A program made the translations under genes and the position numbers. A stretch of DNA of 64,000 nucleotides from Candidatus Daviesbacteria bacterium (lineage in GTDB: Bacteria; Patescibacteriota; Microgenomatia; Daviesbacterales; UBA10151): NCBI GenBank assembly GCA_028715175.1, contig JAQUSJ010000001.1:148356-212355 (forward strand), in the 5' to 3' direction. The notes beneath the pieces were generated by a model. The model was not told the DNA's origin and made no database searches. It saw nothing but the letters and a program-made list of their open reading frames with translations. The first letter of the stretch is position 1, and the number at the start of each line of letters is the position of its first letter. Positions 3,017 through 59,329 of this stretch are shown here, in pieces.

Positions 3017-5116
3017 ATGGCAAGAAGAAGATCAATCTATAAATTACCCAAGTTTAGGTTAAAACAGAAAACTATAACTGCTGTTGGTACCCTAATAGCT
3101 TTCAGCTTGAGCGTTTTATCAATTGTGGCACTTTTTACCCATTCTCAAACACTAGTATTTTGGAGAGATTTTCTAAATGAGTATTTAGGTGTAGCAAAAA
3201 TTGCCTCCCCAATCATTTTTTTGCTTTCCGGTTTGGTTCTGACAAAAGCCAAATGGAAAATAGCACAGACTAATGTTCTTTTGGGATTTATTTTACTGGT
3301 TTTATCCAGTGTTTCATTTGTTGCGGCGCTAAATTCTGAAAAAGCGGGTTCGATCGGGCAAACTTTGTGGATACAGCTGTCTTCTTTTGTCACTCCGCTT
3401 GGGGCAGCCACTTTGTTTGTGTTAGTTTTCCTGATTGGTTTGGTTGTACTTTTTAATACTTCCCTGCAGCAAATTTTTGCCGTTTTTGTTTATATTTTTA
3501 ATATCTTGCAAAGACTGTTTAAAGCAATTTTTAACAATCAGCGGACATTTGAAGCAAAACATATTCCGATTAAAGTTTCCGGGGTTGACGAACGCCCCGT
3601 CACAAAACCGCTGGCAATGCAGCAAAAAGAGGCCGTTATTGCTGATGTATTGGTACAAAATGTGGCCGGGCAAAGTAAAATCTGGAAATATCCACCTTTA
3701 AATTTATTATCTGATAAAGTGGGATCGGCCGCTGAAAGAGGTAATGTTAAAGATAATGCTAATATTATCGAAAAAACGCTAGATTCATTTGGGATTCAGG
3801 CAAATGTGGCAGAAGTCAACGGCGGGCCGGCAGTAACACAATATGCGCTGCGGATTTCAGCAGGAACCAAAATTTCGAAGATTGCCAATTTACAGCATGA
3901 TATTGCGCTGTCTCTGGCTACGCCTACCGGTACTGTCAGAATTGAGGCGCCTATTCCCGGAAAATCCCTGGTTGGTATTGAGGTACCAAACCGCTCTCTT
4001 GAGATAGTCGGCTTGAAACAAATTTTAGCATCAGAAGAGATGCAGAAGCATAAATCAAGACTGGCTGTTGCACTGGGACGGGATACTTCTTCAAAGCCAA
4101 TGATTGTAGATATAGATAAGATGCCTCACGTTCTGATTGCCGGTACAACCGGTTCAGGTAAATCGGTGTTAATTAATGCAGTTATTGCTTCCTTGCTTTT
4201 CAGGAATTCACCGGACACCTTGAAGATGATTTTGATTGATCCAAAAAGGGTAGAACTGACAAACTACAATGGTATTCCTCATCTTCTAACACCGGTTATT
4301 ACGGAACCGGAAAAGATTTTATCTTCCTTGAAGTGGGCAATGGCCGAAATGGATAGACGCTATAAATTATTCCAGTCAGTCGGAGTGCGTAATATCACGG
4401 GTTATAATGAAATGTCCGGTTTTCAGGCCCTGCCGTATATTGTCATTATTGTTGACGAGTTGGCCGATCTTATGATGTTTGCGCCGGTTGAGATTGAGGA
4501 TGCAATTACCAGGATTGCCCAACTAGCTAGGGCAACAGGAATTCATCTGGTGGTGGCAACCCAGCGGCCTTCTGTTGACGTTATTACAGGTTTAATCAAA
4601 GCCAATATCCCCTGCCGGATTGCATTTAACGTATCTTCCATGATTGACTCCCGGGTTATTTTAGACGGACCCGGGGCGGAGAAATTGCTGGGACGGGGAG
4701 ATATGTTGTTTTTGCCTCCGGATGCTTCAAAACCGATTCGTATTCAAGGAGTGTTTGTTCAGGATAATGAGATCGAGAGTTTGATTAAATATCTTAAGAA
4801 TACCGGCATTGCGCCGGAATATACTACAGAGGTAACGGAGATGCCGCTGGGCAGGTGGGGCGGAAGAAATGGTAATGGAGGCGAAAAAGACCAGTTATTT
4901 GAGGAGGCAGTTAAAACTATTTGCCAATATGATCGGGCTTCGGCATCGCTGCTTCAAAGAAGGCTTAAGGTCGGTTATGCCAGAGCTGCCAGGATTTTAG
5001 ATGAGCTGGAGGCAGCAGGGATTGTTGGCCCGGGTGAAGGTTCAAAGCCCAGGGATGTGCTGGTCCGTAATGCTGAGGAATATTTTGCAGCTCAACAAAG
5101 TGCGAGCGGAAATTAA
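3017..5116 (+). CDS. ftsK: DNA translocase FtsK/SpoIIIE
   Basis: N-terminal TM helices, Walker A AGTTGSGKS, motor domain, C-terminal gamma winged helix (LLQRRLKVGYARAARILDELE). Confidence 0.9.
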   Translation: MARRRSIYKLPKFRLKQKTITAVGTLIAFSLSVLSIVALFTHSQTLVFWRDFLNEYLGVAKIASPIIFLLSGLVLTKAKWKIAQTNVLLGFILLVLSSVSFVAALNSEKAGSIGQTLWIQLSSFVTPLGAATLFVLVFLIGLVVLFNTSLQQIFAVFVYIFNILQRLFKAIFNNQRTFEAKHIPIKVSGVDERPVTKPLAMQQKEAVIADVLVQNVAGQSKIWKYPPLNLLSDKVGSAAERGNVKDNANIIEKTLDSFGIQANVAEVNGGPAVTQYALRISAGTKISKIANLQHDIALSLATPTGTVRIEAPIPGKSLVGIEVPNRSLEIVGLKQILASEEMQKHKSRLAVALGRDTSSKPMIVDIDKMPHVLIAGTTGSGKSVLINAVIASLLFRNSPDTLKMILIDPKRVELTNYNGIPHLLTPVITEPEKILSSLKWAMAEMDRRYKLFQSVGVRNITGYNEMSGFQALPYIVIIVDELADLMMFAPVEIEDAITRIAQLARATGIHLVVATQRPSVDVITGLIKANIPCRIAFNVSSMIDSRVILDGPGAEKLLGRGDMLFLPPDASKPIRIQGVFVQDNEIESLIKYLKNTGIAPEYTTEVTEMPLGRWGGRNGNGGEKDQLFEEAVKTICQYDRASASLLQRRLKVGYARAARILDELEAAGIVGPGEGSKPRDVLVRNAEEYFAAQQSASGN

Positions 5117-6919: not shown

Positions 6920-7141
6920 TTATATAAATTTTTCCAGCTCTTTTCTGGTCATGCCAGCCTGCTTAAGGATGCTAGTGAATGTACCAATAGCTATTTCTTT
7001 ATGATTTGGAACAATGACAGTAAAATGCTTATTTCCTTGTCTTTTAAAGAGTTTAATATGGCTTCCTCTTTGACTGATAACGCAAAATCCTGCCCTTTGC
7101 AAGGCTGAAAGTATGATGCGGGCAGAGTATAGCTTAGGCAT
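6920..7141 (-). CDS. hicA: Type II toxin HicA (mRNA interferase, YcfA-like)
   Basis: 73 aa. The motif GSHIKLFKRQGNKHFTVIVPNHKEIAIGTFTSILKQAGMT matches HicA family topology. Confidence 0.8.
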   Translation of the reverse strand: MPKLYSARIILSALQRAGFCVISQRGSHIKLFKRQGNKHFTVIVPNHKEIAIGTFTSILKQAGMTRKELEKFI

Positions 7142-9311: not shown

Positions 9312-11522
9312 ATGAGCTTTCTAAGTAACCTCGCTAATCTATTACCAATTGGTAAAAAAGAAGAAACGAAGGAATATTTTTTTGCGCTTAATATCGGAAC
9401 GGAAACTTTGACGGCCGCTCTTTGGGTTATTGAAGGTTTAAACTTAAAAATTTTAGAAACAGCTTCAGATAATTACTCTTCGAATGATGATATTGCGACT
9501 GTTACGGATAAACTTTTGGATGCTGTCTTAGGCTTAAAAGAGGTTGAACCCCAAAAAATTCTCTTTGGTGTACCAAATTCCTGGATTGCGGATGAAAATC
9601 TAAAAGACGAGTATTTAAAGATTCTTAAAAGTTTAGTGAAAGAATTGGAACTGGTTCCAATGGCATACGTCGCTACAAGTCATGCCTTAATTCATTTCTT
9701 GGAGAAACAAGAAGGTGTTCCGACAACTGCCATACTGGTTGGTTTTGAGAAGCAACATCTAACCGTAATTGTGGTTCGGGCAGGGAAACTTGATGGTGTA
9801 AGAGTTATAGCGAGAGGAGAAACTGCCGGTTCGGATATAGAAAAAGCGCTACTTGCATTCACGGATGTGGAGACCTTACCTTCTAAGATTTTAATTTATG
9901 GGGAGCAAACTGAAAATTTAAAAAGCCAACTATTGTCTTTTTCCTGGATGTCAAAACTTTCTTTCCTGCATCTTCCCAAAATAGATGTTTTGGGAGACGA
10001 TGCTCCGATTAAAAGTGTTTGTTTGGCCGGAGGATCGGAGATAAACAGTGATATTAAATTTACCGAGCAGCATATTCAGAAGTCCCCTGTCAAATCGACC
10101 TTGATTGATACCGGTGAGGAAGAGATCAAGAACAAGATTGAGGTGGATGATTCTGCTGCCCAAGAAAATTTCGGATTTGTTGTCGGGGATGTTTCGAATC
10201 AGAAAAAATCAGCCCCGATTGAATCTGGGTTAAAGAGTCAAGAGACCGGTGAGTCAGAAGAACTTGTGGTTTCGCAAGAGCATGCTTTAGAAGTTGAAGA
10301 TTTTGAGCAAGAAATGCCCGTAACAAGCGAATCTCCAAAAGAAATACATAAAGAAAAATTTAATCTCAAACGATTTATCCCAAAGCAAAATTTTACAACT
10401 ATGACTATAATTATCGGGGTAATTCTGGCACTGGTTTTGATTGGGGGCGCTTATGTTTTTCTACCAAAAGCAAACATGAAGATTTTTGTAGAACCGAAGA
10501 TTGTAGAACGGGATACCCAAGTTGTGGCTGATCCAAATCAAAAAACCGTTAACGAAGACGGGAAAATCATTCCGGGACAGATTATCGAGACGGAGGTATC
10601 CGGATCGGCAAAAGACAGTGCTTCCGGTAAAAGACAGATTGGCGATCCGGCAAAAGGGACGATTGTGCTTTACAATAAAACTTTAGATTCCATCTCTTTG
10701 AGTAAGGGAACACAAGTTAGTAAAGGGAGTATAAAATTTACACTGGATACCAGTGTAACAATTGCCTCATCGTCCGCCAGTGATACCGGAATTGCTTTTG
10801 GTAAAGTTAATACTACAGTTACAGCAGTAGCAGTCGGAGCTGACGGAAATATTTCATCAGGTGCGGATATAACGGTTGCGGGATATTCATCGGATAAATT
10901 AACGGCAAAATCAGAAGGTAATTTTTCCGGAGGAACCTCTAAGGATGTAACTGTTGTTTCAAGTGAGGATACTCAGCGACTTCTGGCCAAGTTATCTTCG
11001 GATTTAAGGCAACAAGCTCAACAGAAATTACAGGAGAAATATCCTAACAAGAAAATTCTGGAAGAAGCGCTGTCGGAACAAATTACCAGTAAAAGCTATA
11101 ACAAAAATGTTAATGATCAGGCAAGTGAATTTTCGCTAAATATGACCATTCGTTATAAAGGTACGGCGTTTGATGATAATGATCTTAAATCAATTGTTTC
11201 AAAGTTAGTAAATATGCAAGTGCCTGATGGTTTTAAGCTTGATATTTCGGCAACCGAAACCCAGGCAGATGTTTCTAAGCTGGAAAAGGACGGGAAGTTG
11301 ATATTTTTAGCAAGGTTTAAGGCAAAATTAATACCCAAGATCGATATGGATAAAATTAAAGATAAGATTAAATTTAAGAGTTACTCTGAAGCTACGAACA
11401 TTATTAAAGAAATGGAGAATGTTTTGGGTTCCGAAATTAATATAACTCCTGCTTTACCGAAAGCGATTCAACGACTGCCAATACTTTCAAAAAATATCAC
11501 GATTGAGGTGGGACTTAAATGA
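9312..11522 (+). CDS. Membrane protein with an N-terminal FtsA/PilM-like actin-fold domain, one TM helix and a large extracytoplasmic C-terminal domain
   Basis: FALNIGTETLTAALWVIEG actin-fold start. TM helix IIIGVILALVLIGGAYVFL at about aa 365. Ser/Thr/Gly-rich external region. Confidence 0.5.
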   Translation: MSFLSNLANLLPIGKKEETKEYFFALNIGTETLTAALWVIEGLNLKILETASDNYSSNDDIATVTDKLLDAVLGLKEVEPQKILFGVPNSWIADENLKDEYLKILKSLVKELELVPMAYVATSHALIHFLEKQEGVPTTAILVGFEKQHLTVIVVRAGKLDGVRVIARGETAGSDIEKALLAFTDVETLPSKILIYGEQTENLKSQLLSFSWMSKLSFLHLPKIDVLGDDAPIKSVCLAGGSEINSDIKFTEQHIQKSPVKSTLIDTGEEEIKNKIEVDDSAAQENFGFVVGDVSNQKKSAPIESGLKSQETGESEELVVSQEHALEVEDFEQEMPVTSESPKEIHKEKFNLKRFIPKQNFTTMTIIIGVILALVLIGGAYVFLPKANMKIFVEPKIVERDTQVVADPNQKTVNEDGKIIPGQIIETEVSGSAKDSASGKRQIGDPAKGTIVLYNKTLDSISLSKGTQVSKGSIKFTLDTSVTIASSSASDTGIAFGKVNTTVTAVAVGADGNISSGADITVAGYSSDKLTAKSEGNFSGGTSKDVTVVSSEDTQRLLAKLSSDLRQQAQQKLQEKYPNKKILEEALSEQITSKSYNKNVNDQASEFSLNMTIRYKGTAFDDNDLKSIVSKLVNMQVPDGFKLDISATETQADVSKLEKDGKLIFLARFKAKLIPKIDMDKIKDKIKFKSYSEATNIIKEMENVLGSEINITPALPKAIQRLPILSKNITIEVGLK

Positions 11523-18100: not shown

Positions 18101-18520
18101 GCTCAAATGGGGGGCCAGCGGTTGGGAGAGATGGAAGTTTGGGCTTTGGAAGCATATGGAGCGGCCAATATTCTGCAGGAAATGTTGACTATCAAATCTG
18201 ATGACGTTGTTGGAAGAGCTAAGGCTTTTGAAGCAATTGTTAAGGGAATTGATATACCGCAGGCTTTAATCCCTGAATCTTTCAAGGTATTGGTAAAAGA
18301 GCTCCAAGCTTTAGGTTTATCTGTTGAAACGCTTGGAGCAAAAATAGTCCAGGCGGAGGAGTTGGAAGAAAAACCGGAAGTAGTAGAGGAAGTAGCCGAG
18401 CTTCAGGAAGCGCTCGGAATGCAGCCAACTGCCACCCAGGGAGAACTTGAGGCAGAGGGAAGTCCTTTTGAAGTTGTAGATGCAGGTTCTGAAGTTGAAA
18501 AAGAAAAGGAGGAATCATAG
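15149..18520 (+). CDS. rpoB: DNA-directed RNA polymerase subunit beta
   Basis: Start moved to MSLNLSNTKIYERKYF (matches the RpoB N-terminus); full-length RpoB motifs throughout. Confidence 0.95.
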   Translation: MSLNLSNTKIYERKYFSKAPSIVPELNLIQIQLDSYRWFMQTGIREVLKEISPVEDFTGKNWTLELGSFYFGKPKYASEEASLKGVTYDAPLKIEAILINKQTGQRYKQEVFLGDVPQMTEKGTFIINGVERVIINQLVRSPGVFFQASDDPITGKRLFSAEIRPYRGSWLEFSITRGGVLTAKIDRRRKFAATTLLRALGFSDNESIIAQFTDVDTGEDKFIDTTLAKDPTTNTEEALLEIFRKMRPGDPVVLDNAKALLDGMFFNARRYNLIKVGRYKINKRLNLNLPNVPENWVLTKEDIIATLKYLMKLNYGEGKLDDIDHLANRRVRCAGELVQQNAFRIGVLRLERIIKERMSLTAADQEVSPGSLINAKPVIAAINEFFRSSQLSSILDQVNPLSELDHLRRLSVMGSGGITRDRASFSVRDINHSQYGRIDPIRSPEGQNIGLVTYLALYARINEYGFLETPYRKVVMQKGKPRVTNEIIYFTADDEENYHITEATVNLDENGYILDERVPTRFQGSFYEGFAKDISFIDISPQQIFGTSASLIPFLANDDANRALMGTQMQCQAVPLLRPSAPIVGTGMERIVADNMGRVIRAPEDGVIKYVDGKKLILKTKKQEISFEIKKFVHSPQGTCYSQRPVVNVGNKVAKGDLLIDGAACENGELALGQNLLIAYMSFEGLGYEDAIVISDRLVKEDTLTSIHIEEYEVDVVETKLGPEELTNDIPNVSEEALVNLDEKGIVRIGAEVGPNDIIIGKVQPKGETELTAEERLLRAIFGEKAKEVRDTSLRIPHGERGTVIGVQILSRDEGDELDTGTLMRIKVKVAQLRKVTAGDKLAGRHGNKGVISKIVPVADMPHLADGTAIDIIISPLSVLSRMNLGQLLETHWGFAAQKLGHKIAAPVFEKIPEEKLIEALQKAGYPTDGKVQLFDGRTGEPFGNKIVVGRNYILKLIHMVEEKIHARSTGPYSLVTQQPLGGKAQMGGQRLGEMEVWALEAYGAANILQEMLTIKSDDVVGRAKAFEAIVKGIDIPQALIPESFKVLVKELQALGLSVETLGAKIVQAEELEEKPEVVEEVAELQEALGMQPTATQGELEAEGSPFEVVDAGSEVEKEKEES

Positions 18521-18597
18521 CTATCAGTCTTCAGCTATCAGCTATCAGACAAAAACAAAAAGTCTGACGACTGACAGCGAAGCGATACTGAAAGCTG

Positions 18598-26790: not shown

Positions 26791-27975
26791 ATGGCTGAAC
26801 AGAAAAAATTTGATAGAAGCAAACCGCATGTAAATGTTGGAACCATGGGTCATGTTGACCATGGTAAAACAACTTTAACTGCTGCAATCACCAAAGTCTT
26901 GGCCGGCAAAGGTATGGCTGAAGAGCGCAGTGTTGATCAAATTGATAACGCTCCGGAAGAAAAAGCCCGTGGCATTACCATTAATATTTCTCACCAAGAG
27001 TATGAAACCGAAAAAAGGCATTATGCCCACATTGATATGCCAGGGCATGCAGATTACATCAAAAACATGATTACCGGCGCCGCCCAAACAGATGGCGCCA
27101 TTTTGGTAGTTTCTGCACCGGATGGCCCAATGCCTCAAACCAGAGAACATCTTCTATTGGCTCGCCAGGTAGGAGTTCCGGCAATTGTAGTTTATTTAAA
27201 TAAGGTAGATATGGTAGACGATCCTGAACTTTTGGATTTGGTAGAAGAAGAAGTTCGTGATCTTTTGAAGAAATATGAATATGATCCGCAGTCTCCTATA
27301 ATCCGCGGCAGCGCCAAAAAGGCTTTGGAAGGTGATGCTGAGGCAGTAAAATCTATTGAAGATTTAATGACTAAAGTTGACGAGTGGATTCCGACTCCTG
27401 TCAGGGATACGGATAAGCCGTTCCTGATGGCGGTTGAGGATGTTTTCTCAATTAAAGGCAGAGGTACGGTAGTAACCGGAAGAATTGAAAGAGGCAAGGT
27501 TAAAGTTAATGAAGAAATCGAAATCGTTGGCATCAAGCCCACAAAGAAAAGCGTTGTCACAGGAATTGAGATGTTCCATAAAATGCTGGATGAAGGTCAA
27601 GCGGGCGACAATGCCGGAATTCTGCTTCGAGGTATTGAAAAAGACGATGTTGAAAGAGGTCAAGTTTTGGCCAAACCAGGCTCAATTACCCCGCATTCCG
27701 AATTCCAGGCTGAAGTTTATATTTTGAGCAAAGAAGAAGGCGGAAGACACACTCCTTTTTTCAAAGGCTACAGACCGCAATTCTATATTAGAACTACAGA
27801 TGTGACCGGTGAAGTTACTTTACCGGAAGGAGTAGAAATGGCGATGCCAGGTGATACAGTCAATGTTACCGGTAAACTTATTACACCTGTTGCTATGGAA
27901 GAAGGTCTTCGTTTTGCTGTCAGAGAAGGCGGAAAAACGGTCGGAGCCGGGGTTATTACCAAAATAATCGCTTAA
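26791..27975 (+). CDS. tuf: Elongation factor Tu
   Basis: [39 protein letters not shown]; 394 aa. Confidence 0.95.
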
Positions 27976-27983
27976 GCTTATTT

Positions 27984-28039
27984 GTCATTCTGAACGTAGT
28001 GAAGAATCTAATTGGATTTTTCGTTTTACTCAGGATGAC
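27984..28039. repeat. Dual-hairpin palindromic repeat element (GTCATTC...hairpin...GAATC / GATT...hairpin...GATGAC), copy 1
   Basis: Two about 25-nt units in inverted orientation (gtcattctgaacgtagtgaagaatc / gatttttcgttttactcaggatgac). A near-identical element is at 50127-50182 and a related one at 31218-31288. Confidence 0.6.
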
Positions 28040-28088
28040 AATTTAGTATAATGCACATTGAAAGGGAAATCCCTAAAGGGATTATAAT

Positions 28089-28397
28089 ATGCCAAGAGGA
28101 CGAATCAGAGTAAAACTGAAGAGTTACGATCATCGGGTATTAGATAATACCTGTGAATCCCTTTTGGATACAGCCCTTAGAACCGGTGCCAAAATAGTCG
28201 GGCCAATCCTCCTTCCTACAAAAACTGAGCGCATTACGGTTTTAACTTCCCCCCATACAGACAAAGACTCAAGAGAAGCTTTTGAAATAAAAACCCACAA
28301 AAGAATGATTGATATTGTGGAACCTACCCAAAAAACCATTGATTCTCTCATGCATCTTGAAATCCCAGCCGGGGTTGATATTGAAGTAAAGATGTAG
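28089..28397 (+). CDS. rpsJ: 30S ribosomal protein S10
   Basis: IRVKLKSYDHRVLD...S10 family; 102 aa. Confidence 0.9.
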   Translation: MPRGRIRVKLKSYDHRVLDNTCESLLDTALRTGAKIVGPILLPTKTERITVLTSPHTDKDSREAFEIKTHKRMIDIVEPTQKTIDSLMHLEIPAGVDIEVKM

Positions 28398-28398
28398 C

Positions 28399-28992
28399 AT
28401 GTCTAAATTTAAGGTTTTAGGATTTATTAATTGCCTTTTAGCAATTTTGCCTATTGTCGTTCGGTATCCTCTTAATTTAGTTTTCTTATTTTCATTAGGA
28501 CTAAATATTTATTTAGGATATAAATTACTTTGGGAACACTATGATCTAACAAAATTTAAACAATATTCAACTCTGACTTTCTTAACTGTTTTTTGGCTCA
28601 TTTGGGGTTTGATCGGATATATTTTTGCGTCAGGGTTTGTTTACCCAATAATCTCTCTTGTGCCAATTACTGGAATTTTTATCTTTATTAGGAAACTTTC
28701 GGTTAAACTGGCTTTACTTGTTTCCTTTGCTACATTTTTAATTGTTGTCCAAACGATAGCTTGGAGATTTGAAGAAGATTATTGCTGGAAGAAAGGGTAT
28801 GAAATGGCTGTAGGTAAACTAGGAACGATGGTTGTTCCTGGCCAAGAAGCTAAAAATTTATTCGGCAGTGATATTGATATTTCTGCATCTGGTTCTGCTG
28901 AAGTTGGTACAGCCGCATATTACCATTTTAAGTGTCATCAGGATTTTGATTTGGGTAGAGTACTGAGAGAAAAATATATCCCAAAGAAGTAA
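28399..28992 (+). CDS. Hypothetical polytopic membrane protein inserted between rpsJ and rplC
   Basis: Starts 2 nt after the rpsJ stop (coupled); 4-5 predicted TM helices; no family recognised. Confidence 0.5.
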   Translation: MSKFKVLGFINCLLAILPIVVRYPLNLVFLFSLGLNIYLGYKLLWEHYDLTKFKQYSTLTFLTVFWLIWGLIGYIFASGFVYPIISLVPITGIFIFIRKLSVKLALLVSFATFLIVVQTIAWRFEEDYCWKKGYEMAVGKLGTMVVPGQEAKNLFGSDIDISASGSAEVGTAAYYHFKCHQDFDLGRVLREKYIPKK

Positions 28993-29162
28993 ATATAAAT
29001 TCACCTCTCTTGCATTTAGCCTCGAGTTTGTGTTAGAATTTCCTTACATGATTAGGTCAGGTTAAATAATTTAACCTAAACTACGTTCATGTAAACTGAA
29101 CGTAGTAAAATTTCAGTAGATCGCGCGTCCTGAAACGATACGGCGAATCTAGCGAGATACTG

Positions 29163-29197
29163 AGTGAGCTTCGCCTAGGCGAACTCACTCTTTTTAG
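29163..29197 (+). terminator. Attenuator/terminator-like hairpin plus T tract 10 nt upstream of the rplC start
   Basis: gagtgagcttcgcc-tag-ggcgaactcactc (13-bp stem with one bulge) followed by ttttt. No room for a promoter before rplC, so it is probably a regulated read-through attenuator. Confidence 0.45.
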
Positions 29198-29207
29198 TGC
29201 AAAAATT

Positions 29208-29999
29208 ATGATAAGTACACTTTTAGGTATAAAAAAGGAAATGACGAGTGTTTATGATTCCCGCGGAAGAAGGGTGGGAGCTACCGTTGTACAAATTTCA
29301 CCTAATTTGGTGACTCAAATAAAAACTACCGATGGTAAAGATGGTTACAGCGCAGTCCAGCTAGGTTATGGAACCAAAAAATCAGTCAAAAAACCTCAGC
29401 TTGGACACGGGAAAAAAGCTGGAATTGAAACTCCGATTAGATGGTTTAGGGAAGTTAAAATCAAGGAAGAAAATCCCTCGACTACGCTCGGGACTATAGA
29501 GCCTGGAACAGAAATTAAACTGGACCAGGTTTTTTCAATAGGAGATGCAGTAAAAGCGACAGGTATTTCTAAAGGTAAAGGTTTTCAAGGTGGAGTGAGG
29601 CGTCACGGCTTTCATGGCGGACCAAAGACTCACGGTCAATCAGATAGGTTGCGAGCTCCGGGCGCAATTGGTTCAGGTACTACCCCGGGAAGAGTTTATA
29701 AGGGCAAAAAGATGGCAGGTCATATGGGTAGTAGCGGAGCAAGTACCAAGAATTTAGAAGTCGTAGGGTTAAATAAAAATGATAATTTATTGATTATTAA
29801 AGGCGCAATTCCGGGGCCGGTGAATAATTTAGTTTTAATTACAAAATTAGGAAGAGTAAAAGGTTACACTCCGCCACCGGAAGAAAAACCATCGGAAGAA
29901 GAATTAAGCGAAGAGAAGCAAGAATCAAGCAAAGAAACAGAAGAGCCAAAGACTGAAGAAGCAAAGGTGGAACAAAAAGGAGAAGAAAATGCCAGTTAA
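29208..29999 (+). CDS. rplC: 50S ribosomal protein L3 with an acidic C-terminal extension
   Basis: L3 core (GKGFQGGVRRHGF...). About 45-aa Glu/Lys/Ser-rich tail. Confidence 0.9.
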   Translation: MISTLLGIKKEMTSVYDSRGRRVGATVVQISPNLVTQIKTTDGKDGYSAVQLGYGTKKSVKKPQLGHGKKAGIETPIRWFREVKIKEENPSTTLGTIEPGTEIKLDQVFSIGDAVKATGISKGKGFQGGVRRHGFHGGPKTHGQSDRLRAPGAIGSGTTPGRVYKGKKMAGHMGSSGASTKNLEVVGLNKNDNLLIIKGAIPGPVNNLVLITKLGRVKGYTPPPEEKPSEEELSEEKQESSKETEEPKTEEAKVEQKGEENAS

Positions 30000-30780
30000 A
30001 AAAGTGATAAGTAAGAAGAGAAAAGTAACAAGTGACAAGAAACAAGTGACAAGAAAAAAAGCTGGAAGTGCTTCTCTATCTGTTCCAGTTTATTCTCTAG
30101 CTGGTAGAGTTGCTGGAACTTTGTCATTACCAAAGGAAATTTTTGGGGTTAAAGTTAATAAAACATTGCTGTCACAAGCAGCTAGAGTTTATTTAACAAA
30201 CAAGAAGACCTTATTAGGTTCTACCAAGACCCGGGGTGAGATTGAGGGTTCAACTGCCAAGATTTATAGGCAAAAAGGCACCGGCAGGGCTAGACACGGC
30301 GCTATCCGCGCGCCGATATTTGTCGGGGGCGGTATTACTTTTGGTCCCAAGTCCCGCAAGGTACGGCTGGATTTACCAAAGAAGATGAAAAAAGCAGCTT
30401 TATTGTCTGCTCTTTCAGCTAAGGCGGCTGATAAGAATGTAATAGGGTTAGCTGGAGTTGAAAAAGCATCAGGTAAGACAAAAGAGTTATCTAAAGTTTT
30501 AAATAAAATTACTGGAGAAAATAAAGGCATGAAAAGTGTTTTGATTGTGACTGAGGGAAAAGCAGATAATATGATTAGAGCGGTCAGGAATATTCCAGGG
30601 GTTAGTATTTTGTCTACAAATTTGATTAATGCTTACGAAGTTTTAAGACACGACTTATTAATTTTGAACAAAGAAGCGGTCAATGTCATTCTGGGGAGTA
30701 AAACGACACCAGAATCTGGTAAGAAAGATTCTGGACGCGCTCTGCTTGCCAGAATGACAAAGAAAGGGAAGAAAAAATGA
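29989..30780 (+). CDS. rplD: 50S ribosomal protein L4 with basic N- and C-terminal extensions
   Basis: L4 core (KGTGRARHGAIRAPIFVGGG); 263 aa. Confidence 0.85.
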   Translation: MPVKKVISKKRKVTSDKKQVTRKKAGSASLSVPVYSLAGRVAGTLSLPKEIFGVKVNKTLLSQAARVYLTNKKTLLGSTKTRGEIEGSTAKIYRQKGTGRARHGAIRAPIFVGGGITFGPKSRKVRLDLPKKMKKAALLSALSAKAADKNVIGLAGVEKASGKTKELSKVLNKITGENKGMKSVLIVTEGKADNMIRAVRNIPGVSILSTNLINAYEVLRHDLLILNKEAVNVILGSKTTPESGKKDSGRALLARMTKKGKKK

Positions 30781-31205
30781 TCATTTTAAAACGGCCAATT
30801 ATTTCTGAAAAATCAATGAAACTTGCCCAAAATGGTTTGTATACTTTTGAGGTTGACAGAGAGGCAACAAAGCCTTTAATTGCCAAAAAAATTTCCGAGA
30901 AATTTAATGTTAACTTTTTAAAAGTTAGAGTAATAAATATTAAAGGAAAGATGAAATCACAAAGAAAAGTTAGAAAAGTTTATCAAACCGGGGGATACAA
31001 AAAAGCTATAGTCCAGGTTAAAAAAGGAGATAAAATTGCTGTCTTTGAAACTCCTAAAGAAGAGGCTACAGTCACAACAGCTGAGGGCGAACCGATCAAA
31101 TTAAAAGAGAAAAAGGATATTTTAGGAAGGACCAAAGTAAAAGTAGAAAAAACCGCGGTTGGGGCAGCGCCTACAACGCAGAGAAAGGTAATAACAGGAA
31201 AGTGA
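30777..31205 (+). CDS. rplW: 50S ribosomal protein L23 with a C-terminal extension
   Basis: L23 core in the first about 95 aa; the tail is Lys/Glu/Thr-rich. Confidence 0.85.
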   Translation: MIILKRPIISEKSMKLAQNGLYTFEVDREATKPLIAKKISEKFNVNFLKVRVINIKGKMKSQRKVRKVYQTGGYKKAIVQVKKGDKIAVFETPKEEATVTTAEGEPIKLKEKKDILGRTKVKVEKTAVGAAPTTQRKVITGK

Positions 31206-31217
31206 CGAATGCAGTGA

Positions 31218-31288
31218 GTCATCCCTGCGAAGGCAGGGATTCACTTAACAGCATCAATTAATTGGATTCCCGCATCCGCGGGAATGAC
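31218..31288. repeat. Dual-hairpin palindromic repeat element, copy 2 (gtcatccctgcgaaggcagggattc ... ggattcccgcatccgcgggaatgac)
   Basis: Same architecture and GTCAT/ATGAC termini as 27984-28039. The spacer carries the shared aattaattgg motif. It creates the spurious MDSRIRGNDK N-terminus on the rplB ORF. Confidence 0.6.
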
Positions 31289-31303
31289 AAGAATGAGAAG
31301 ATT

Positions 31304-32056
31304 ATGGAAACAATAAAAAGCACAAAAAGATTAAAGGTTTTGTTAAAGAAACACTCAGGCCGCTCTGGTGGAGTGTTGACTGTCCGTGGTCAAGGCGGAA
31401 GACATAAGAGGTATTACAGGGGGATTGATTTTAGAAGGGATAAATTTGGAGTTTCGGGTGAAGTGATGGATATTGAATATGATCCGAATAGAAATGTAAA
31501 AATTGCCTTAATCAAATATACGGATGGAGAATACAGGTACATTTTGGCCCCAAAAGGGTTATCTGCGGGTGACAAAGTGATAGCCGGTGACAAAAGTGAA
31601 ATAAAAATTGGTAATGCGATGAAGTTACAAAATATAACGATCGGGACACTGATACATAATGTTGAACTTACTCCTGGTAAAGGCGGACAATTAGGTCGGA
31701 GTGCTGGAATGGCGTTACAACTTCTTGCCAAAGAAGGCGGTTTCGCTAATTTGAAGATGCCCTCAGGTGAGGTTAGGATGATCTCTCTGCAATCAATGGC
31801 TACGATTGGCACATTAGGCAACGAGGAAGTGAGACAGCGGGTATTGGGCAAAGCCGGCAGATCCCGCCATATGGGTATCAAACCAACTGTTCGCGGTGTG
31901 GCTCAAGATCCTGATTCTCACCCGCACGGCGGGGGAGAAGGAAGATCAGGAATTGGGCGAAAAAGCCCGATGACAAAATATGGCAAGATTGCTGTCGGTA
32001 AAACCAGAAATAGAAGAAAGCAAAGCAATAGATATATTTTGAAAAGGAGAAAATAA
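31304..32056 (+). CDS. rplB: 50S ribosomal protein L2
   Basis: Start moved to [12 protein letters not shown]2 motifs (GRNxxGxIT-like, HPHGGGEG). Confidence 0.9.
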
Positions 32057-34044: not shown

Positions 34045-34433
34045 TTGGAAGGGTTGTTTCAACAAAAATGCAAAAAACGGTGACTGTCTTAATAGAAAGA
34101 GTGGCCAAGCACCCTTTGTATCAAAAAACTTTTATTCAAAGTAAAAGATATTTGGTTGATGATCCTGTTGGTGTAAAGATGGGGGATGTGGTAGAGATCG
34201 TTAAAGTCAAACCGATTTCTAAGAACAAGCATTGGAGGATAGTCAAAGTAGTAGGGAAGAATTTGGAAGAAATTACAGAAAGTGCATTAAAGGCAGCAGC
34301 AGAAAAAATAATTGCGGAAGCGATGCCGGAGGGAAAGACTGAAGAGTCGTCAGTCATCAGTCATCAGACTGAAGAAGAAACAAACAAAAGACAAGAAAAA
34401 CTTAAAGAAAGAAAGGAAAAGTCTGAAAGCTGA
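34041..34433 (+). CDS. rpsQ: 30S ribosomal protein S17 with a C-terminal extension homologous to the L29 tail
   Basis: S17 core (GRVVSTKMQKTVTV...) plus the tail ...SVISHQTEEETNKRQEKLKERKEKSES. Confidence 0.85.
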   Translation: MIGRVVSTKMQKTVTVLIERVAKHPLYQKTFIQSKRYLVDDPVGVKMGDVVEIVKVKPISKNKHWRIVKVVGKNLEEITESALKAAAEKIIAEAMPEGKTEESSVISHQTEEETNKRQEKLKERKEKSES

Positions 34434-34458
34434 TAGCTGAAGACTGAGAGCTAATTTT

Positions 34459-35878: not shown

Positions 35879-36000
35879 GAAAATTAGAATTATGAATTTA
35901 GAATTAAGAATCTTGAATAACAAAATAAAGATACGTGATGGACGATTCGGAAACGTGAGTTCATCAAAAGGAGGAGGACGGTAGAATCGTCCAAAAAGAC

Positions 36001-36375
36001 ATGGATCCAGTTGCAGATGCGTTAATAAGAATAAAGAATGGTTATCAGGTTGGCAAATTGAAAGTTGCAATTAGATTCTCAAAGTTAATTTTAAAACTTG
36101 CTAAATTACTTGAGAAAGAAGGCTATCTGTTGGGGGTTGAACAAAAGGGTCAAGAAATAATAGTCACCTTGAAATATAATTCAAGAGCTCCGGTTTTAAC
36201 CGATATCCAAAGAGTTTCAAAGCCTGCTCTTAGGGTATACAAAGGAGTTAAAGACTTGCCGGTAGTCTTAAACGGATTAGGTATTGCGATTATTTCGACA
36301 CCTAAAGGTTTAATGACTGACAGGCAAGCGCGCAAACTTAAAGTAGGAGGGGAAGTGTTAGCGCTAGTTTGGTAA
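36001..36375 (+). CDS. rpsH: 30S ribosomal protein S8
   Basis: DPVADALIRIKNG S8 signature. Confidence 0.9.
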   Translation: MDPVADALIRIKNGYQVGKLKVAIRFSKLILKLAKLLEKEGYLLGVEQKGQEIIVTLKYNSRAPVLTDIQRVSKPALRVYKGVKDLPVVLNGLGIAIISTPKGLMTDRQARKLKVGGEVLALVW

Positions 36376-46308: not shown

Positions 46309-46448
46309 CATCAAGAGTCTACGTTCATGTAAGCTGAACGTGGCGGCAACCGGAAAGTAATCGGTGCCAATCCCGATGTAATATCGGGAGATGTGGTCTT
46401 AAGTTTTAGGACAAACTTTATCTAGACCTCTCTTGATGAGAGGTTTTT
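46309..46448 (+). promoter_or_regulatory. Candidate SAM-I-like riboswitch with terminator expression platform in the metK leader (atypical: no P2 arm)
   Basis: P1 CAUCAAGAG...AGAUG; GGCAACC at 46345-46351; GGUGCCAAU at 46363-46371; P4 hairpin cccgauguaauaucggg. Terminator ccucucuugaugagagg plus UUUUU ends 2 nt before the metK ATG and is complementary to the P1 5' strand. Confidence 0.4.
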
Positions 46449-50126: not shown

Positions 50127-50182
50127 GTCATTCTGAACGAAGTGAAGAATCTAATTAGATCTTTCGTTTTACTCAGGATGAC
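50127..50182. repeat. Dual-hairpin palindromic repeat element, copy 3 (near-identical to 27984-28039)
   Basis: gtcattctgaacgaagtgaagaatc ... gatctttcgttttactcaggatgac. It abuts the recX start codon and accounts for the spurious MKNLIRSFVLLRMTI extension. Confidence 0.6.
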
Positions 50183-50186
50183 AATT

Positions 50187-50849
50187 ATGAAAATAACTCA
50201 AGTAGAACCTCAAAAGAAGAATCCGCATAGATTTAACATATTCATAGATGGAGAGTTTGCTTTTGGGGCAGACGAAGATTTGGTGGTTAACAGAAGATTG
50301 GTGGTTGGAAAAGAACTGACCACATCCGATGTGGAAAAGCTGCTATTTGAGGCAGAGGTGGGAAAACTAATGGAGCGGATGTATAGATGGTTTAGTTTGA
50401 GGCAACATTCAGAAAAAGAAGTCAGAGATTATTTTAAAATTAAGAATCAACAATCAAAAATCAAGGGTAAGGAGCAAATAAGTCAGTTAACAATGGATGC
50501 TTTGGTGGAAACTTTGAAGAAAAAAGGCATGATAAATGATCTGGAATTTGCCAAAGCCTGGGTGGAGGCAAGAAGAAAAAGTAAGAATTTAGGAATAAGA
50601 GCTTTAAGAATGGAACTTTATAAAAAGGGAATTGATAAGGAAATTATTGAGGAGGTATTGAGTGAGCCCTTCGACTTCGCTCAGGGCGAGGAAGAATTAG
50701 CAAAGCAAGCTCTTGAAAAGAAAATGAGAGTTTGGAAAAACTTAGACCATTTGGAATTTAACAAAAAGGCCTATGAATTTTTAGCAAGAAAAGGTTTTGA
50801 GTATGAGATAATTAAAGAGACAATTGAAAACTTGGCGGGAAAAGAGTAA
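50187..50849 (+). CDS. recX: Regulatory protein RecX
   Basis: Start moved to MKITQ after the repeat. Three-helix repeat RecX-like sequence (HRFNIFIDGEFAFG...); recA-recX synteny. Confidence 0.75.
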   Translation: MKITQVEPQKKNPHRFNIFIDGEFAFGADEDLVVNRRLVVGKELTTSDVEKLLFEAEVGKLMERMYRWFSLRQHSEKEVRDYFKIKNQQSKIKGKEQISQLTMDALVETLKKKGMINDLEFAKAWVEARRKSKNLGIRALRMELYKKGIDKEIIEEVLSEPFDFAQGEEELAKQALEKKMRVWKNLDHLEFNKKAYEFLARKGFEYEIIKETIENLAGKE

Positions 50850-59029: not shown

Positions 59030-59286
59030 ACGCCTAGGAAGAAGGATGATCGGTCGCCTTAGGCGACAGGAAAGTCCAGACAGCATAAAGCAGGGTGGTC
59101 CGATGTAAATCGGACACGGGTAACCGCTAGTTAGAGCAACAGTGACGAACCGAGGTCATGCTCGGGTGAAACGTGGCAATCCTCCCCGCTGCAATCCTAG
59201 AACCGACAGAGTTGCTTGCTCAATTGTTGAAATCAGGAGCATTAGATAAATGATCGTCTAAAAACAGAATCTGGCTTACTAGCTTC
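59030..59286 (+). ncRNA. rnpB: RNase P RNA (compact bacterial type)
   Basis: P1 gccuaggaag / cuuccuaggc (59032-59041 / 59273-59282). P4 strands GGAAAGUCCAGAC and ACAGAAUCUGGCUUA match the universal P4 consensus. AGCAGGGUGG and extended -10 tgTATAAT lie just upstream. Confidence 0.7.
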
Positions 59287-59329
59287 CTAGGCATTTTTCT
59301 TCTATTTTTCTCATTGTATACTTATATAA

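Follow-up and report, generated by a model that had tools for sequence, protein, structure and literature searches.

Paired hairpin repeats of probable SRM/NTS type in the tuf, S10-operon and recA regions of a Candidatus Daviesbacteria genome

Short hairpin motifs that are single-stranded DNA (ssDNA) targets of the Ssn nucleases were described by Chenal et al. (2025, Nat Commun; PMC11893778). In Neisseria, the motif (NTS) reads CGTCATTCCCGCGMAVGCGGGAATCYRG, with a variant (NTSvar) reading CGTCATACTCGGGNNNNNCCCGAGTATC, and forms a subset of the dRS3 repeats, while the enzyme, SsnA, is a 94-aa, ssDNA-specific protein consisting of a single GIY-YIG domain (CDD cd10448). SsnA binds the hairpin solely as ssDNA, with no binding of double-stranded DNA, RNA or the reverse strand, and its cut falls upstream of the motif, at a distance of a few nucleotides. 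Of the bases flanking the palindrome, the preceding GTC matters in cutting and the following C in binding; two oligonucleotides carrying half an NTS each still direct cleavage, and the residues of SsnA that were mutated were Y6, Y17 and E64. Biochemical results have been published for the Neisseria and Wolbachia homologues, and in N. meningitidis SsnA reduces transformation by NTS-bearing DNA, with 2% of the NTSs being intragenic. Generalised 'Ssn-related motifs' (SRMs), found with a search string built by hand from 29 genomes in 4 phyla, flank ssnA homologues: 71% of the homologues had at least one SRM nearby and 42% were flanked on both sides, and Rickettsia was named among the SRM-rich genera. 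The NTS-ssnA-NTS arrangement was likened by these authors to an insertion sequence, with mobility raised as a hypothesis only (all from PMC11893778).

Several other families of small repeats bear comparison. The dRS3 repeats of Neisseria (ATTCCC-N8-GGGAAT) are intergenic and bound mosaic segments, the NIMEs. Rickettsia palindromic elements (RPEs) are small palindromes that are inserted in frame in protein-coding genes and translated. In the REP/BIME/REPIN-RAYT systems of E. coli and Pseudomonas, directional hairpin units with a conserved 5' oligonucleotide form inverted pairs after genes or inside operons, and a single-copy partner nuclease gene is flanked by its own repeats. Here, paired elements in a Candidatus Daviesbacteria genome (Patescibacteria; CPR) are compared with these systems. 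We consider it probable (roughly 80%) that four such elements are repeats of the SRM/NTS type, present as cargo-less pairs that were inserted within the Daviesbacteria lineage.

Four outward-facing pairs in the window

The stretch analysed (the window) comprised 64 kb, and four elements of two units each were located in it (Table 1), in the gene orders tuf-E1-rpsJ, rplD (containing E4) followed by rplW-E2-rplB, and recA-E3-recX. Each unit is directional and reads (T)GTCAT, then an imperfect palindrome, then ATC(T); the units face outward as inverted pairs (GTCAT...ATGAC) separated by spacers of 6-22 nt. Searching the window for GTCAT-N40-70-ATGAC gave five matches, against 0.79 expected from dinucleotide shuffles; four were the genuine elements, and the fifth, at 6948, was without internal structure and probably reflected chance. 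GTCAT opened all eight units, and ATC closed the palindrome in seven (E2-left has ATTC). A sequence-only reading of this DNA had reported E1, E2 and E3 as a repeat family of this architecture, and all three were present where it had placed them, E2 having different stems from the other two, identical ends and a spacer sharing TAATTGGAT. The fourth copy, E4, had escaped it, and the identity of E1 and E3, given as about 90%, was higher (95% over 61 nt). E4 consists of GTCAT-TCTGG-N14-CCAGA-ATC, a 10-nt spacer and GAT-TCTGG-N14-CCAGA-ATGAC, and is read through as a C-terminal tail of L4, VILGSKTTPESGKKDSGRALLARMTKKGKKK.

Table 1. Coordinates of the paired elements in the window and of the adjoining gene ends
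Element	Pair	Left unit (+)	Spacer	Right unit (-)	Preceding stop	Following start	Host gene
E1	27984-28039	27984-28008		28015-28039 (degenerate)	tuf 27975 (8 nt before)	rpsJ ATG 28089 (49 nt after)	
E4	30685-30758	30685-30716	30717-30726	30727-30758			inside 3' end of rplD ORF 29989-30780
E2	31218-31288	31218-31242, stem CCCTGC/GCAGGG		31265-31288, GTCATTCCCGCGGATGCGGGAATC	rplW 31205 (12 nt before)	real rplB ATG 31304 (15 nt after)	
E3	50127-50182	50127-50151		50158-50182 (partly degenerate)	recA 50121 (5 nt before)	recX ATG 50187 (4 nt after)	

Outside coding regions, the elements (E1, E2 and E3) lie 5-12 nt past the preceding stop codons and 4-49 nt ahead of the next starts. The earlier description, placing all copies within 0-40 nt of a start codon, was roughly right, with E3, E2 and E1 lying 4, 15 and 49 nt away, and the preceding stops are equally close. 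The N-terminal peptides that the elements appear to add to rplB and recX were confirmed as artefacts of ORFs opening at a TTG (31262) and a GTG (50142), respectively; in relatives, L2 begins at the Met corresponding to 31304.

In this, the window units show the features by which an SRM is recognised (a conserved GTC(A/T) directly 5' of the palindrome and a C directly 3' of it), and the bases conserved outside the stem (GTC and C) coincide with those mapped as functional in PMC11893778. The units share with NTS/SRM motifs the common frame (C/T)GTCAT + palindromic hairpin + ATC. E2-right (GTCATTCCCGCGGATGCGGGAATCC) goes further, having the Neisseria stem ATTCCCGCG...GCGGGAAT, matching the NTS at 24 of 28 positions and fitting the dRS3 pattern perfectly; the other seven window units have different stems, and no filler segments of RS type were seen. 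The units are nevertheless outside the published degenerate SRM string (HGTCWYN(0-2)YYVSBRHN(0-5)WNVSBRGN(0-2)RNCYNB), which matched none of the eight and had no hit anywhere in the window (0.13 in shuffles). The class with CTGA..GAAG fails at an 'S' position of the string, and E2-right fails in the loop. The commonest class found in the present work, YCTGA-GCGNAGC-GAAGR, combines tandem G.A with a GNA triloop and is not given explicitly in the portion of PMC11893778 available to us; the published pattern misses what is seemingly the most widespread class. Further differences from the described systems are the host, a CPR bacterium, and the arrangement of the window copies as tight, nuclease-less inverted pairs, some of them inside coding regions.

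The window had no Rfam hit at gathering scores, and permissive searches (E<=10 around the elements; E<=1 in eight canonical loci) returned hits at chance level only. A full-text literature search with the element DNA strings and the junk peptides retrieved nothing relevant. A hammerhead-like core (CUGA...GAA, GUC) was considered and rejected from the sequence, which lacks the N-G-A expected to join CUGA to stem II.

The dual hairpins proposed in the sequence-only reading were borne out thermodynamically for two of the pairs. Folded as DNA, the E2 units gave -8.6 and -9.0 kcal/mol (z -5.0 and -3.3) and the E4 units -5.4 and -5.6 kcal/mol; the left units of E1 and E3 reach only -0.8 kcal/mol, a weak fold that shuffled sequences equal, and their right units form no hairpin on their own. 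The E1 and E3 units can be recognised as degenerate versions of a unit for which covariation at other loci supports a hairpin. In locus L001, which is 92-97% identical to the window, the copy of E1-right is still canonical; the copies in the window are in decay. Several of the window units may be dead, because the hairpins of E1-right and E3-right have been lost and E2-left has ATTC instead of ATC.

A unit shared across phyla and its small GIY-YIG partner gene

A degenerate version of the E1/E3 unit, GTCATYCTGARYRNARYGAARRATC, was used to scan 596 Gb of sequence comprising one genome per species. By our own calculation about one match would be expected by chance; at least 120 stretches matched. 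The matches listed came from more than 15 phyla, including Nitrospirota, Patescibacteria, Bacteroidota, Chloroflexota, Acidobacteriota, Firmicutes, Planctomycetota, Proteobacteria, Omnitrophota and Gemmatimonadota, and matches were likewise listed from environmental viral contigs (IMG/VR). GenBank phages gave no match, and plasmids only five weak ones, in cyanobacteria and Phocaeicola. The repeat family is genuine, with the unit found in hundreds of places across phyla, where a lack of further copies combined with a position conserved in distant relatives had been named as the signature of a leader structure.

Covariation supported a hairpin within each unit. Among the matches listed, free positions 6 and 22 were T-A in 70 units and C-G in 80, with 2 exceptions, and positions 11 and 17 were G-C in 121 and A-T in 30. 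The resulting model has a 5-bp stem (A4-T24 to T8-A20), conserved tandem G.A/A.G, two further pairs and a GNA triloop. In an independent set, taken from loci selected by protein (see below) and required to contain GTCAT-N17-ATC only, 92.6% of cells paired and slid registers collapsed; 46 double-sided changes were counted, compared with 11.8 +/- 4.5 in shuffles (none of 500 shuffles reached 46). The borders of conservation were sharp (T-1 and T+26/C+27), and when only the core was required, TGTCAT and ATCT were kept in 80-86 of 90 sequences.

The outward-facing pair is the dominant arrangement: neighbouring units were outward, inward and direct in a ratio of 56:12:6 in genomes and 39:9:14 in viral contigs, with spacers of 4-60 nt between them. 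Within a pair, the units often carry different bases at the covarying positions, which indicates that selection keeps two small hairpins and not a single long one. Short tandem arrays of partial half-units (TGTCATYCTGAGC upstream, GCGAAGRATCTC downstream) were observed beside full units in three IMG/VR loci (L151, L158 and L206). Among the genome loci fetched, convergent spacers carrying elements outnumbered divergent ones 27:3, the background being 108:110, and single units were oriented in the same sense as genes in 59 cases and in the opposite sense in 43, a bias that is not significant. The spacer preference together with the lack of orientation bias argues against promoters and against a strand-specific role in RNA; the pattern fits insertions surviving only outside promoter regions.

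Two of the three functions suggested in the sequence-only reading were accordingly not upheld for the family. Promoter elements, with the outward ATGACA ends or an internal TTTACT serving as -35 for downstream genes, find some backing at E1, where the best promoter-like match in 27900-31400 (TTTACT-16-TATAAT, 28025-28052) has its -35 within the right arm, and in weak matches (9/12) in which the ends of several elements contribute ATGACA. Relatives that lack E1 nevertheless have the same downstream TATAAT, so that E1 at most substitutes a -35, and there is no room for a promoter at E3, which ends 4 nt ahead of the recX ATG, or at E4, which lies inside a coding region. With divergent, promoter-bearing spacers also avoided family-wide, we regard a promoter function as very improbable.

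An action at the RNA level, as 3'-end stabilisers, terminators or RNase sites in operons in the manner of E. coli REPs, would agree with the location of the elements shortly past stop codons in transcribed spacers, with the avoidance of divergent in favour of convergent/tandem spacers, with E1 occupying the site of the relatives' tuf terminator, and with the ability of whole E1, E3 and E4 to fold into a single long hairpin (z -3.3 to -7.0). The spacer bias is, however, equally expected for any insertion tolerated only outside promoters, and it is the intra-unit hairpins that have been maintained rather than the long one. No U tract follows the unit, conservation stopping at +27; GTC and C, though conserved, are not part of the stem; close relatives have no elements at the orthologous sites; and the RNA form is not bound by SsnA (PMC11893778). 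An RNA-level function, whether in processing, attenuation or stabilisation, therefore appears unlikely, if less so than a promoter.

All-against-all clustering of the neighbouring ORFs from 120 loci yielded no recurrent partner, and larger cargo between units consisted of ordinary genes (GroEL, a phage portal-like protein), with no transposases. ORFs lying exactly between two units nevertheless encoded a GIY-YIG protein of about 93 aa in four loci. Linkage was then tested in the other direction, using 80 metagenome loci chosen solely by similarity to a ~94-aa single-domain GIY-YIG protein. Units were carried by 63 of the 80 (47 upstream, 53 downstream, 39 on both sides), and the total of 198 units compares with 0.15 expected from shuffles. 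Typically, a (+) unit is followed after 40-100 nt by the ORF and, 10-90 nt further on, by a (-) unit; the median length of the whole span is 422 nt. The flanked proteins are 93-98 aa long, contain Pfam GIY-YIG (PF01541) as their single domain, and are about 70% identical between homologues from distant phyla; NCBIfam holds no specific model for the flanked nuclease and PDB no relative. Y7, Y17 and E64 are invariant in their alignment, at about the positions of the mutated SsnA residues, a correspondence that is suggestive only. A partner gene of this size and fold with units on both sides, like the extragenic location of units clustered around particular genes, is a further likeness to the NTS/SRM-Ssn system.

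The same evidence bears on mobilisation by other enzymes. Two inverted directional hairpin units with a conserved 5' oligonucleotide recall REPINs and BIMEs, and the ends read TG...CA, as might be expected of REP/REPIN elements mobilised by a RAYT (HUH Y1 transposase) or of classical MITEs of DDE transposons. The gene between the units is, however, a GIY-YIG nuclease and neither a Y1 nor a DDE transposase, no other neighbour recurred in the 120 loci, no target-site duplication was seen, and the unit is near-identical across phyla whereas REPs are lineage-specific. We give this explanation a very small chance of being correct, and retain the SRM/NTS assignment.

No ssn homologue was found in the 64-kb window or in 20 kb of L001. 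A Daviesbacteria relative (L329/L330, GCA_001777375.1), on the other hand, has one directly after fusA (L330 2703-2996; HMM E = 2e-36). Together with the GTCATTGCGAG...GCAATC units on its two sides, this gene forms a full unit-ssn-unit cassette, and one more single unit is present in the tail of rpmC. From their sequences, the window pairs look like an SRM-ssn-SRM cassette minus the ~94-aa GIY-YIG gene.

Gain and loss in Daviesbacteria

The distribution of the elements differed among relatives. L001 has E1 (5 differences from the window copy) and E4 (1 difference in 74 nt) and is without E2, its rplW-rplB spacer being 31 nt as opposed to 98 nt in the window. Among more distant Daviesbacteria, E1 is lacking in L324-326 and L327, which have an intrinsic terminator, GGGGCGAAAGCCCCTTTTTT, at its site. 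These relatives are likewise without E2 (rplW-rplB spacers of 1-4 nt) and without E4, their L4 ending in ...KEAV(D/E)KLSKP.VKE, whereas read-through of E4 provides L4 of the window and L001 with a new tail of 31 residues. L327 instead carries a 78-nt SRM pair (3267-3344) in frame in the N-terminal extension of L4 (VILSEAQDLKIKKQKSGDSSLVTRND). By description, this pair and E4, both in frame and translated, resemble the RPEs. Presence and absence among relatives identify E1, E2 and E4 as lineage-specific insertions and not conserved leaders, and point to mobility of the pairs. Of the functions proposed in the sequence-only reading, a mobile miniature element therefore comes closest, without the target-site duplication that such an element might leave: neither a duplication nor a clean empty site was seen at E1 and E2, and no conserved duplicated flank was found family-wide, conservation ending at -2 and +28.

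Other small variable features were observed in the same regions. A 25-nt hairpin, CTACGTTCATGTAA(A/G)CTGAACGT(A/G)G, is present at 29081-29105 and 46319-46343; both copies had been noted previously as related single hairpins, which do exist and are a different small element from the SRMs, having no GTCAT/ATC frame. Compared with 92%-identical L001, the copy ahead of rplC forms a clean indel with TAAA on both sides and may represent a tiny insertion with a 4-bp duplication; the exact pattern ACGTTCA-N7-TGAACGT was found in none of the 328 fetched loci. The rplC leader also contains a terminator-like hairpin with a T-run (29161-29197), in L001 (~11045-11090), its loop has given way to an SRM-like core, ATCCTGAGCGAAGTCGAAGGA, that is not framed by GTCAT. 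Within recX (~50660-50690), CCCTTCGACTTCGCTCAGGGC stands in frame (codons SEPFDFAQGE) and is the reverse complement of the same SRM-like core, CCCTGAGCGAAGTCGAAGGG; it may be the remnant of an old in-frame insertion. The N-terminus of L4 in L001 has a different, GC-rich insert. Between rpsJ and rplC, the window has an ORF for a predicted membrane protein of 197 aa (28399-28992), where relatives have a Sigma70_r4-like protein and DUF3276, or nothing; this spacer is a variable spot for insertions in the S10 operon. Another small repeat family is represented by a 33-nt inverted repeat of GCTGATAGCTGAAGACTGA type (18518-18550 and 34421-34453, 94% complementary, 15.9 kb apart), the second copy of which lies between rpsQ and rplN. 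The spacer before rpsH (35918-36004) is 86% like part of a ~195-nt insert of L001 (15198-15393), a mobile-looking intergenic element situated there between rpsC and rplP, a site at which the window lacks it. Elsewhere in the window, 59034-59294 encodes a reduced RNase P RNA (bacterial class A) of 261 nt, compared with the 367-position model.

Possible route of spread and implications

By analogy with the Neisseria and Wolbachia enzymes, the GTCAT strand of a unit would fold into a hairpin whenever DNA becomes single-stranded, as in replication, transformation or repair, and Ssn would bind this folded strand, and not double-stranded DNA, RNA or the opposite strand, and nick it a few nucleotides 5' of the motif. 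Since the cleavable strands of a pair point outward, cuts would fall just outside the pair, on opposite strands, and bracket it, which would be the geometry required by a mobile cassette. The pairs were gained by insertion within the Daviesbacteria lineage; the positions at which they are tolerated are those just past stop codons and the disordered extensions at the ends of L4. We infer that an Ssn of the organism acts on the window copies and that pairs spread in this manner. Alternatively, as in Neisseria, the units might label incoming ssDNA carrying the tuf, S10-operon and recA regions as a target for cleavage. We regard several consequences of the insertions as incidental: tuf has lost its terminator, E1 supplies a -35-like TTTACT 16 nt ahead of an ancestral TATAAT, L4 has a new tail, and rplB and recX have spurious extensions.

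A more far-reaching proposal, to which we would give somewhat less than even odds, is that the nuclease-less pairs are non-autonomous mobile miniatures of the SRM-ssn-SRM cassette, spread via Ssn nicking of ssDNA hairpins. They would then be part of a transposon-like or homing system powered by a GIY-YIG nuclease that acts alone, the first of its kind in bacteria; it would be active in CPR bacteria, able to enter essential ribosomal protein genes in frame and to take the place of terminators.

The repeat family itself was published in 2025; what is new is the CPR host, the sequence class, the tight nuclease-less pairs and the insertions in ribosomal-protein coding regions. With the assignment, the sequence behind a set of junk peptides in metagenome annotations (VILSEAK.., ..SLRMT, ..FAQ(N/D)DK) acquires a name and a partner whose biochemistry has been published. 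As to gene annotation, the start codons are now fixed at 31304 for rplB and at 50187 for recX, and the odd C-terminal tail of L4 is explained. The filled and empty sites in close Daviesbacteria relatives, with some insertions in frame within L4, add comparative support for gain and loss of SRM pairs in the manner of mobile elements, which PMC11893778 put forward as a hypothesis and left untested.
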